Shown: piece by piece, positions 37,194-39,410 of the stretch
Position numbering within the stretch: position 1 is the stretch's first letter
Layout: the number at the start of each line of letters is the position of its first letter
Source of the DNA: a virus
Lineage: Duplodnaviria > Heunggongvirae > Uroviricota > Caudoviricetes
Direction: 5' to 3' (one strand)
DNA length: 43,062 nt
Virus record (IMG/VR): IMGVR_UViG_2663763326_000007
Notes under the pieces: generated by a model
Database searches by the model: none
Seen by the model: the letters and a program-made list of their open reading frames with translations, nothing else
What the model was told of the DNA's origin: nothing
Translations under genes and position numbers: made by a program

Positions 37194-39410
37194 ATGACCA
37201 TTTTTAACGGCTTGTTAGAAGCGAAAAAAGGCGCGCTCAAAAACGGCGCGATCCCGGCGCTGGCCATCGCCATCGCCGCCCCTAACAAAAAAGTTGCCGA
37301 GAACATCATCATCGGCAAATTGTGGGAAGCCTACCCTGACCACGGCGACAACTATTTCAAACCTAAAATCTGGGAAGATGCCCCGGGCCAACCGCGCCCA
37401 GGCGTCGGTGAGTTTGATGAGACGTTTGCCACAGAACACAGTTTTGATGGCGAAAAATGGGTAGTTAACACTCCTGTTGATTCAGATTGCAGTTCAGCAG
37501 ATATCTCACAGGTTAGCGACCTGATGAAACTGCCGGCTCGTGAACGATTCGCCGCCGTTCTGCTGTTCAGCCACGACGCCAACGAAGTCGACAGTGAATT
37601 GCTTGTGCAGACGCGTGAATACCTGGAGATGCTCGATAACAGTGATACTGACAGTGAGGATGAGGTTGACGCGTTTAACCGCATCGTTCTTGATGCCATG
37701 GTGGCGTGTAAGCCCATCGAGTACATGCATATTGCTGGATTGAATAATCTGGTACATGCAATTTTGGCAAGTTGCGATACCCAGGAACAAAACCCGACCA
37801 GTTGGACTATCTCCAAATTTATAAAAAAATGGGTAGAGAATCCCGGTAAACGAGATGAAATGCTGCCGGAGGTAAAACCAGAAACAGCATCCGCACGTCC
37901 TTACAAACAGACTCACGCCACTCTGGATCGTGAAATTGCCTGCGCCCTGTTACCTGTTGCCCCGGAAAAAATCACCCCCAGCATCCTGAAAGCGGCAGAC
38001 GAAATAATCAGTCAGGACAGGGAAGATTTTAAACGCTGGTCAATGGCCTTGCGCACAACGGATCAGATCCTTGCCTATGACCGCGCATCAGTATTCGGTG
38101 TTATTCAGAGCGCCCCCGCAAAAGACACGTACCACTTCCCACAATCCCTGCGCAGTCACATCGACAACTGGCTGCAAGCTAACGGGCAGCGTGATGCAAA
38201 TGCTGTTGAAGAGAAGCCAAAGGAAGCAGCACCCAAGGATGATGTAAAAGTCACCAACCACGGCGGCGGACGATTCTCAATTGATGGGATGATGTCAGAA
38301 ACACCCTCAAATCAGGGCGAAAAAAGCGAAGCTGCAAATGCTGGAGAACGTAGTTTGCAGCAGTTGCGTGAGCAGTTTGTCACGCCTCGCCATGTGTATG
38401 ACGTACCTGAAAATAACGCCGTATCACAGAGGGAACCTGCAGCTATTACCCTGGCAGAAGAGACTCCTCCACAAGAACAACTTAGCGAGCAGGTAAAGGA
38501 TCTGGTGCAGAACGTTGACGCGCTGGTTGAGCGGATCCATGCCGAAGAGCACAAGCGGCAGAATGCAATCTCAGCTATCGAAACGGAGTTAAAGGACTCA
38601 GATGACACGGATAACCTGGCATTGTGGAAGAACGTATTCAAAACCGATGAGCGCTTCACCAGTGCTTTCTCTCAGAATGGCGGCGGCACATCCATCAACG
38701 GCACTTATATAGCGATGAAAGCGACTCGCGAATTTGGGCCATTTGGTATTGGCTGGGGGGTAGAGGTGCTGGAGGAGCGCTTTGATAAAGGCGCACCAAT
38801 AGTTCGCAAAAAACAGGTTGGTGAAAAAATAGAATGGGATCTGATTCAAGACGGTGTTGGCGGGTACCTATGTGAAATGCACCACACCATGAAAGTGAGA
38901 GTCTGGTACATATTGAATGGGGTACGCGGTGAGTCCGAGGCTTACGGATGCACACCTTATATCTACGACACTAAATACGGACCAACAAGCGACGGCGAAG
39001 CACCGAAGAAATCCTGGACGGATGCTGTTAAGAAAGCGCTATCCCCTCTCGGATTCAGCGCCGATATTTTCATGGGCCTGTACGACAATCCGGAATACCG
39101 CCAGAGGAATAAAGCTGAGTTTGATATCAAGAATGCCAGCGAGAATGCGGAAGATGCTACCCGTCTGCGTAAGGAACTGGATGAGAAGCTTATCAACGTT
39201 GCCAATACGCTGGCCGCCGCGGTAACCGCCAACGAAGTAAACAAGGTATTTGGCCTCATCGCCCGCGAAGTGGATGTACACAGGAAAGCAGCGGAAACCA
39301 AAGGCGATAAAGAATATTCATCGTATCTGGGATCACGTCTGCGCCGTATCACCGACATTAAAACTGAACGCCTCGCCGCCCTTACCGCTGCACAGGAGCA
39401 AACAGCATGA
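37194..39410 (+). CDS. Large recombination protein with a Rad52/Sak-like single-strand annealing domain (about residues 480-650) and an uncharacterised 480-aa N-terminal region
   Basis: ..ATREFGPFGIGWGVEV.. and ..GEAPKKSWTDAVKKALSPLGFSADIFMGLYD.. resemble the Rad52/Sak signature (FGxNGW .. TDAxKRAL..FG); conserved TAATGAGGAAAGACCA before the ATG. Confidence 0.55.
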   Translation: MTIFNGLLEAKKGALKNGAIPALAIAIAAPNKKVAENIIIGKLWEAYPDHGDNYFKPKIWEDAPGQPRPGVGEFDETFATEHSFDGEKWVVNTPVDSDCSSADISQVSDLMKLPARERFAAVLLFSHDANEVDSELLVQTREYLEMLDNSDTDSEDEVDAFNRIVLDAMVACKPIEYMHIAGLNNLVHAILASCDTQEQNPTSWTISKFIKKWVENPGKRDEMLPEVKPETASARPYKQTHATLDREIACALLPVAPEKITPSILKAADEIISQDREDFKRWSMALRTTDQILAYDRASVFGVIQSAPAKDTYHFPQSLRSHIDNWLQANGQRDANAVEEKPKEAAPKDDVKVTNHGGGRFSIDGMMSETPSNQGEKSEAANAGERSLQQLREQFVTPRHVYDVPENNAVSQREPAAITLAEETPPQEQLSEQVKDLVQNVDALVERIHAEEHKRQNAISAIETELKDSDDTDNLALWKNVFKTDERFTSAFSQNGGGTSINGTYIAMKATREFGPFGIGWGVEVLEERFDKGAPIVRKKQVGEKIEWDLIQDGVGGYLCEMHHTMKVRVWYILNGVRGESEAYGCTPYIYDTKYGPTSDGEAPKKSWTDAVKKALSPLGFSADIFMGLYDNPEYRQRNKAEFDIKNASENAEDATRLRKELDEKLINVANTLAAAVTANEVNKVFGLIAREVDVHRKAAETKGDKEYSSYLGSRLRRITDIKTERLAALTAAQEQTA

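Follow-up and report, generated by a model that had tools for sequence, protein, structure and literature searches.

What kind of protein is encoded by a prophage gene in which a strand-annealing domain makes up only the last third of 738 amino acids (aa), and what does the long region in front of that domain do? The gene lies at 37194..39410 (+ strand) of a 43,062-nucleotide (nt) stretch of Caudoviricetes DNA (IMG/VR record IMGVR_UViG_2663763326_000007), hereafter the window. Our analysis indicates that it most probably encodes the strand-annealing protein of the prophage, in which a non-catalytic N-terminal module of the RecE type precedes a Rad52/Sak-type annealase with a helical tail. An ATG-started open reading frame (ORF) of 738 aa occupies exactly these coordinates, with a Shine-Dalgarno sequence, GAGGA, 6 nt 5′ of the ATG. 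RefSeq lists the product as WP_000151806.1, ‘hypothetical protein’, and its full-length match in PHROGs is phrog_2489. An identical gene is carried by 463 of 5,426 complete E. coli genomes (~8.5%). The host element is a lambdoid prophage inserted at a tRNA cluster near uvrC, and the gene is part of its early-left operon, with the order DicA-like repressor, about 1 kb without annotated genes, a 106-aa gene, the 738-aa gene, a Sipho_Gp157 gene, a 60-aa gene, DUF4224/xis and integrase. The location between repressor and int is the usual lambdoid site for Rec modules and thus supports the reading as a recombination gene. Megablast against sequenced phages gave no match, and searches with the whole protein against our local Pfam-A copy, NCBIfam and the PDB sequences returned only a sub-threshold patch of similarity to exonuclease VIII.

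The C-terminal third is a Rad52/Sak-type annealing domain, as an initial annotation made from the sequence alone had claimed. An AlphaFold2 (AF2) model of aa 465-738, built from 65 diverse sequences, reached a mean predicted local distance difference test (pLDDT) score of 92.2, and the annealase core at aa 475-635 (38616..39098, +) scored above 90. When this model was compared with the PDB by Foldseek, all of the 8 best matches were human RAD52 (E-values 6e-7 to 5e-6, probability 1.00), with alignments of about 175 columns and template modelling (TM) scores, normalised to the target, of 0.47-0.63; the next match dropped to an E-value of 0.04. Profile comparison by hhalign aligned the family with RAD52 49-159 at a probability of 83.5% (E 8e-6), and the Pfam family PF04098 (Rad52_Rad22) was matched by 17 of 81 diverse standalone family members, with a best E-value of 3e-6. 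In the sequence-based hidden Markov model (HMM) and hhalign alignment, the FG..GW motif of the core falls on the FG..GW of RAD52, and K613/K614 fall on RAD52 K152/R153. These two RAD52 residues belong to the groove for single-stranded DNA (ssDNA). Among the 65 sequences K605, K606 and K614 are invariant. The core is followed by three long C-terminal helices (aa 636-738; 39099..39407, +), which were modelled at residues 169-211, 215-238 and 242-273 of the AF2 model with pLDDT above 90. This helical tail is basic (pI 9.0), is partly conserved in the family and may bind a partner.

A HMMER search with aa 465-738 collected 2,663 cluster representatives, mostly standalone proteins of 240-300 aa together with about 30 fusions of 650-814 aa. 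Relatives at 40-48% identity are called ‘Rad52/Rad22 family DNA repair protein’ by the NCBI. A link to experiment is gp19 of Pseudomonas phage F116 (F116p19), which is 41.5% identical (E 6e-34) and is the ‘Sak’ reference and the ‘Rec6’ of Ricaurte et al. (PMC5743808). That study used oligonucleotide recombineering in P. putida, where Rec5 and Rec6 each produced recombinants at about 1e-4 per viable cell. The P. putida CSV86 locus in our collection (L140, 45% identity) is probably Rec5, matched by strain and length only. With F116 gp19, CSV86 Rec5, lactococcal ul36 Sak and human RAD52's N-terminal domain the 738-aa protein shares the fold, the FG..GW motif and the lysine pair. Standalone Pseudomonas annealases (41-48% identical) are likewise found in the early recombination region of their phages. 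In contrast, the characterised Sak/Rad52-type phage annealases, at 230-300 aa, all lack the ~470-aa N-terminal extension, which bears out the remark in the initial annotation that the protein is far longer than usual. The F116 module also differs in carrying a DnaQ-like nuclease and a single-stranded DNA-binding protein in place of Gp157.

The N-terminal region had been described as matching nothing recognisable. This held for our local Pfam-A copy and for the PDB sequences, neither of which gave a match to the N-terminal ~470 aa, and for structure, as Foldseek of the N-terminal model against PDB and BFVD returned no significant match. It did not hold for profile-profile comparison. A profile of 33 diverse fusion N-termini aligned by hhalign with K-12 RecE over aa 2-418 (RecE 5-431), collinearly and with a probability of 99.0% (E 2e-18). 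Split alignments recovered aa 22-93 against RecE 19-91 (probability 91-95%, E 4e-8 to 1e-6) and aa 234-330 against RecE 254-353 (probability 98.2%, E 5e-14), the latter being the block best conserved with RecE. Between these two blocks the alignment was weak yet collinear, and controls with reversed sequences were flat. Direct BLASTP to K-12 RecE was marginal (E 0.007), and the relation becomes clear only through the profile of diverse fusions and through bridging members. One of these, a protein of 775 aa (P0158), matches RecE 1-518 at 49% identity (E 1.5e-154) and carries a Rad52-type C-terminus 69% identical to that of the 738-aa protein; another (P0157) is 34% identical to RecE 6-366, and a third (P0164) has a YdfE/RecE-like N-terminus ahead of this annealase. 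In two databases a shorter segment matched exonuclease VIII: NCBIfam PRK09709 matched only positions 262-370 (E 2e-12, 46 bits against a cutoff of 1269), so that the protein is not a member of that family, and PHROGs (phrog_607 and phrog_2082) together with NCBIfam mark aa ~232-336 as common with exonuclease VIII. The start of the protein corresponds to YdfE_N (PF27430), a family of a newer Pfam, for which precomputed matches exist on every close homologue; one of these is the cluster representative P0001, whose identity to the 738-aa protein is 100% over the full length. Residues 46-105 are 30% identical to K-12 YdfE. By these alignments the N-terminal ~470 aa are homologous to the non-nuclease N-terminal region of RecE. 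A homologue search with the N-terminus yielded no proteins beyond the close relatives from Salmonella and E. coli.

The layout of the N-terminal module follows from the AF2 model, the alignments and the conservation. It starts with a small alpha/beta domain of the YdfE_N or RecE N-terminal type (aa 1-93; 37194..37472, +; pLDDT ~70-82). A helical region follows (aa 115-335; 37536..38198, +), with helical stretches modelled at aa 115-215 and 241-330. It includes the segment flagged by hhalign, PRK09709, phrog_607 and phrog_2082, and it is acidic in its first part, with a net charge of -12 at aa 115-232 and of -18 over aa 1-335. Next comes an acidic linker (aa 336-431; 38199..38486, +) that is predicted to be disordered, with pLDDT below 50 at aa 331-430, and that shows the lowest conservation in the N-terminus. 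A long helix (aa 432-468; 38487..38597, +; pLDDT ~84) connects the linker to the annealase domain. Self-BLAST of the N-terminus revealed no internal repeat. As a separate observation, in some Salmonella-type homologues of 804-844 aa (P0006, P0012, P0013 and P0016, also L006) the acidic helical part, corresponding to aa ~87/113-236, is duplicated in tandem.

The same module stands before three unrelated catalytic domains: the PD-(D/E)XK domain PF12684, the DnaQ-like domain PF16473 and the Rad52-type annealase. PF06630 at the N-terminus is combined with PF12684 at the C-terminus in Gifsy-2 STM1009 (961 aa) and in a protein of a Klebsiella phage (1,034 aa), each followed by RecT. Tritos gp27 (823 aa; L175:3875-6346) ends in a DnaQ-like 3′-5′ exonuclease domain (PF16473, E 2e-67) and is 99% identical to K-12 YdfE residues 1-256. 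Its module is the one found here (N-terminal HMM E 3e-89; 25% identity to aa 42-331) and it occupies the same operon position by xis and int. Unlike the 738-aa protein it has a DnaQ-like C-terminus, and the Tritos locus contains no annealase gene near gp27 and no Gp157. K-12 ydfE itself (L007:5079-5999, Qin prophage) is a pseudogene truncated by IS2, the stump of an 823-aa protein made of the N-module and the DnaQ-like domain; the intact form is labelled ‘exonuclease VIII’ in records, though its nuclease domain is unrelated to that of RecE. Within the fusion family the module is swapped faster than the annealase evolves. In L022, for example, identity is 72% in the annealase core against 23% in the first domain.

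The otherwise unconserved, disordered linker contains a short linear motif, VKVTNHGGGRFSIDGMMSETP, at aa 352-372 (38247..38309, +). A motif of this GxG[RK]FSIDGL type, with the consensus [VI]xN[LHM]GxG[RKV]FSIDGL, occurs in 17 of the 33 diverse fusion N-termini. Its versions are IKVESMGAGRFSIDGLTCEST in gp07 of Pectobacterium phage ZF40 and PEVSNMGNGVFSIDGLMDSQP in the Klebsiella RecE-type nuclease protein, and K-12 RecE and P0158 have the variant GRGEFV[DE]GISDPND. Docking motifs typically show such a pattern.

We found no sign of a nuclease in the N-terminal module. Published work places the nuclease of RecE in the last ~300 residues of the protein and assigns no known function to the N-terminal region (PMC11611040, PMC11610958), which it describes as separate from the nuclease and genetically dispensable for it (PMC11611040). 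When the N-terminal profile was aligned by hhalign with the RecE nuclease domain (560-866), the probability was 0.1%, no match, and Pfam found no PF12684, the PD-(D/E)XK domain at RecE 564-866, in the 738-aa protein. Positions conserved in at least 85% of the 33 N-termini are G18, A29, A35, P48, L244, A249 and A268. Only small or hydrophobic residues are thus strictly conserved; no constellation of acidic, histidine or lysine residues is conserved across the 33 sequences, and charged or aromatic positions are conserved only at the level of groups and are scattered. Matches of nuclease motif patterns in the N-terminus were rejected as non-conserved chance matches, and the structural matches of the N-terminal model in PDB and BFVD included no nuclease.

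Both parts of the protein are kept together in a wide range of genomes. We compared 80 IMG/VR viral loci with 80 species-level GTDB loci, of which 47 were Enterobacterales-type and 33 other. Both parts lie in one ORF in 78 of the 80 viral loci. The Enterobacterales-type loci, which include Escherichia, Citrobacter, Serratia, Pectobacterium, Yersinia, Providencia, Proteus, Xenorhabdus, Photorhabdus, Morganella, Rahnella and Pantoea, comprise 40 fused ORFs of 584-794 aa, five split copies (three of them split by a frameshift) and two genes on 951-bp contigs. The fusion is kept as a single frame despite a range of 45-100% identity in the Rad52 domain. All 33 other loci, mostly from Pseudomonas, have standalone annealases of 230-276 aa. 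Ratios of nonsynonymous to synonymous substitution rates (dN/dS), where computable and indicative only because dS was saturated, were ~0.06-0.31 in the folded N-terminal parts, ~0.10 in the core and highest, at 0.3-0.8 (0.3-0.55 for aa 336-431), in the linker, an indication of purifying selection on both halves. Cultured phages with the fusion and the same neighbours include ZF40 (gp07, 721 aa) and BUCT708/709 (710 aa). A side observation concerns a 12.5-kb Martelella alba contig (L100) and Stenotrophomonas phage BUCT708 (L092), whose fusion genes are 62-70% identical to enterobacterial ones. Although the first record is assigned to an alphaproteobacterium and the second to a Stenotrophomonas phage, both have the gene order of enterobacterial lambdoid phages, and contamination, a misassigned host or a recent transfer may be the cause.

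A Sipho_Gp157 family protein of 189 aa (39407..39976, +; PF05565, E 9e-29; phrog_253) is encoded directly downstream, and the annealase stop and the Gp157 start overlap as ATGA at 39407-39410. Such an overlap, of 1 or 4 nt, is present in 77 of the 80 viral loci. Among the GTDB loci, 77 of 80 have the Gp157 ORF directly 3′ of the annealase, fused and standalone alike, and two further standalone metagenomic annealases show the same 4-nt overlap. The conserved cassette is therefore annealase plus Gp157, to which the RecE-type N-module has been added specifically in Enterobacterales. As the two genes are paired almost invariably in Pseudomonas and Enterobacterales alike, Gp157 is a candidate functional partner of the annealase. 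Two small genes complete the operon. The 106-aa gene directly upstream (36843..37163, +; phrog_2479, E 6e-53) and the 60-aa gene downstream (39976..40158, +; phrog_2482) are conserved operon members found in most related loci, and the Gp157 stop overlaps the start of the latter as TAATG. PADLOC found no match to a defence system among the four operon proteins.

How such a protein might work can be outlined by analogy. Like RAD52, the C-terminal domain would probably assemble into rings, in which the conserved lysines contact ssDNA and complementary strands are annealed. Nucleases of the host could supply the ssDNA, as they would for P22 and HK620, whose modules have no nuclease of their own. 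Gp157 would be an accessory that the system cannot do without and that may shield DNA ends. The role of the N-module in cis would be that of an adaptor or tether, not of an enzyme, for whichever enzyme it is fused to, be it a 5′-3′ nuclease, a 3′-5′ nuclease or an annealase. Full-length RecE is reported to raise specifically linear-linear recombination (Fu et al. 2012, as cited in PMC11611040 and PMC11610958). We infer an adaptor because the module precedes three different end-acting enzymes, has no catalytic signature and carries a docking-type motif, and because of this effect of full-length RecE. The accessory domain, one of the options named in the initial annotation, is the best reading of the extension. 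A wider proposition is tentative and, on our estimate, more likely wrong than right: that the RecE-type N-region, with its alpha/beta domain, helical domain and acidic linker with a docking motif, is a portable, non-catalytic recombination adaptor. Enterobacterial phages would fuse it in cis to whichever enzyme for end processing or annealing heads their recombination module, and it would tether this enzyme either to DNA ends or to a partner common to all of them. The most likely origin of the fusion would be an exchange behind a RecE-type N-module, in which an annealase-Gp157 cassette of the Pseudomonas-phage kind took the place of recT and the nuclease domain.

Other explanations of the N-terminal region have to be weighed against the one favoured here, that of an annealase with a non-catalytic module. 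Were the N-terminus a cryptic exonuclease feeding ssDNA to the fused annealase, the protein would be a two-component recombinase in a single chain. This would fit the name ‘exonuclease’ on phrog_2489, phrog_7838 and many homologue records, a module without a separate nuclease gene (as probed with RecE and RecT), and the seeming existence of fusions of a RecE nuclease to a RecT-like protein (a match of RecE to phrog_561). However, the same label sits on the standalone 240-aa F116p19, which marks it as a propagated error, and the N-region aligns with the part of RecE that is dispensable for the nuclease (PMC11611040). With no match to the RecE nuclease domain, no catalytic constellation in the 33 N-termini and no nuclease among the structural matches, we regard a cryptic exonuclease as very improbable, and the exonuclease partner proposed in the initial annotation is not borne out. 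Even less credible, and hardly worth entertaining, is that the long ORF is an accident, two genes joined by an error of sequencing or assembly or by a frameshift that the prophage acquired recently during its decay, so that function would be limited to the C-terminal part. The split Enterobacterales-type loci, the insertion sequences (IS) found within the gene in six E. coli genomes and the IS nearby in the prophage of the window would agree with decay. The comparative data contradict this: a single frame is kept over 45-100% identity in 78 of 80 viral contigs and in 40 loci at species level, hundreds of complete E. coli genomes share one identical sequence, the N-terminal dN/dS is well below 1 where computable, and the viable cultured phages ZF40 and BUCT708 contain the fusion. 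There is also no internal in-frame start with a Shine-Dalgarno sequence at the domain boundary. The initial annotation had allowed that the N-terminus might match a known separate protein in a gene split by a stop codon; it does match part of RecE, but the gene is unsplit and kept in one frame in dozens of species.

A role in counter-defence or host takeover is unlikely, though it deserves more weight than either of these. The N-module would then inhibit RecBCD or another host nuclease, or shield the annealase from immune sensors that recognise phage annealing proteins, and it would be carried by recombination enzymes only because these work at the same site. It is limited to Enterobacterales phages, with Pseudomonas relatives lacking it; it is acidic over aa 1-335, like many inhibitors that mimic DNA; its exchange between lineages outpaces the evolution of the annealase (L022, P0158), in the style of an arms race; and there are known defence systems with phage annealases as their trigger (PMC13581612). 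On the other side, no similarity to Gam, Abc2 or any PADLOC model was found, and the reported rise in linear-linear recombination with full-length RecE points to a role within recombination. Several observations also weigh against an annealase with a non-catalytic module. The AF2 model of the N-terminus has a mean pLDDT of 57.9 and a predicted TM score of 0.26, and at this moderate confidence an unrecognised enzymatic fold is possible. No RecE-nuclease or RecT homologue was found within 5-6 kb in the window or in the 160 related loci with probes for RecE and RecT only, so an unrelated nuclease could be present among the small neighbouring ORFs. For the annealase domain, the 738-aa protein itself stays below the Pfam thresholds for PF04098, and hmmsearch of the family profile against the PDB finds RAD52 weakly (E ~1.5). 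Annealing and recombination by the fused members would follow from standalone homologues and ring formation from RAD52, and the adaptor role of the N-module is read from domain architecture. Finally, Gp157 as a homologue of Mu Gam was not reproduced: hhalign gave an E-value of 0.15, no better than the reversed control, with a shallow profile (effective number of sequences, Neff, 1.9) that might miss a distant relation. The label ‘Mu Gam-like end protection’ comes from PHROGs and RefSeq, and the two proteins belong to different families (Mu Gam to phrog_491/PF07352, Gp157 to phrog_253/PF05565).

Among known systems, RecE (Rac, Gifsy-1/-2) shares with the 738-aa protein the alpha/beta domain and helical block as well as a linker motif of a related kind. 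RecE, however, has the PF12684 nuclease where the 738-aa protein has the Rad52-type annealase, and is followed by RecT instead of Gp157. We considered Gifsy-1/-2 ‘recE’ as a studied orthologue and rejected it, as it encodes a true RecE nuclease with RecT. P22 (Erf, Abc1/Abc2 and Arf) and HK620 (Sak4), as presented in section 9 of PMC12315714, resemble the system described here in combining an annealase and accessories without a phage exonuclease, presumably relying on host nucleases; their modules differ in using another annealase family and other accessories and in having no RecE-type N-module. The nearest relative in a cultured phage is ZF40 gp07, which has the same architecture over its full length (36% identity, E 4e-127) and the same neighbours (gp06 of the Gp157 type, xis and int), and which by alignment and gene order is an orthologue with no difference in kind. 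Table 1 of Zheng et al. 2025 (Genome Res; PMC12315714) lists the ZF40 module as positive for anti-RecBCD and negative for a nuclease and for a single-strand annealing protein. The paper describes RecE-2 proteins without a nuclease domain and of unknown role, and it reports no Rad52-type domain. The RecE-2 group is possibly the fusion family described here. ZF40 gp07 clearly has a Rad52-type domain, and the annealase thus went unrecognised in that survey.

Our literature search found no paper describing the combination of a RecE N-module with a Rad52-type annealase. The architecture of the fusion is new; Rad52/Sak-type annealases and the RecE N-terminal region are known, and the annealase assignment in itself is not surprising. 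It nevertheless corrects annotation. PHROGs labels phrog_2489 and phrog_7838 ‘exonuclease’, as do many phage records for the homologues, and the proteins now called ‘hypothetical’ or ‘exonuclease’ are to be regarded as annealases, which makes ZF40-type modules ordinary annealase-containing modules. Plain 240-250-aa Rad52-type annealases (F116 gp19, L090), ZF40 gp07 (L091) and more than 50 Vibrio phage records are also annotated ‘exonuclease’; the erroneous label probably spread from the RecE-like N-terminus of the fusions via phrog_2489 and phrog_7838. The N-module is of interest beyond this gene, as full-length RecE is a workhorse of direct cloning and two 2023 reviews call the function of its N-terminal ~560 residues unknown. 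Its occurrence before an annealase, a DnaQ-like nuclease and the RecE nuclease offers a comparative handle: whatever it does must suit three enzymes that act on DNA ends. Should the adaptor reading be true, it would explain how full-length RecE boosts linear-linear recombination, and the fused annealase with Gp157 would be a self-sufficient, nuclease-free two-gene system usable for recombineering.

Several minor features of the prophage were noted in addition. An IS3-family element (orfA, 173 aa; orfB, 283 aa) at 40492-41861 separates the 60-aa gene from the DUF4224/integrase genes; the copy of the prophage in SK1144 lacks it. An ISEc52-type element interrupts the 738-aa gene in six other E. 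coli genomes. The ~1 kb between the DicA-like repressor and the 106-aa gene (35833-36842) carries no annotated feature in any of the 475 E. coli genomes (475/475) that contain this stretch, and an Rfam scan of it gave no match. Terminator-like hairpins on the minus strand are enriched at 36591-36699 (8 observed against 2.8 ± 1.8 expected). In the related layout of Qin and Tritos the corresponding position is taken by ydfABC, the DicF small RNA and dicB. A segment of 33 nt at ~36742-36774 is 100% identical to a sequence within a CRISPR array beside queE in E. coli 2020CK-00188, which points to a natural spacer against the unannotated region of the prophage. Further upstream, YdaS-like (at the Cro position) and YdaT-like genes at 34555-35356 (-) are divergent from the DicA-like repressor, which marks the immunity region as Rac/Qin type, not lambda type. 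P1/P7-type C4 antisense control is usually found 5′ of an anti-repressor gene; in the window, Rfam matches at gathering level to isrK, the C4 antisense RNA and its a1/b1 target lie at 30288-30485 (-).

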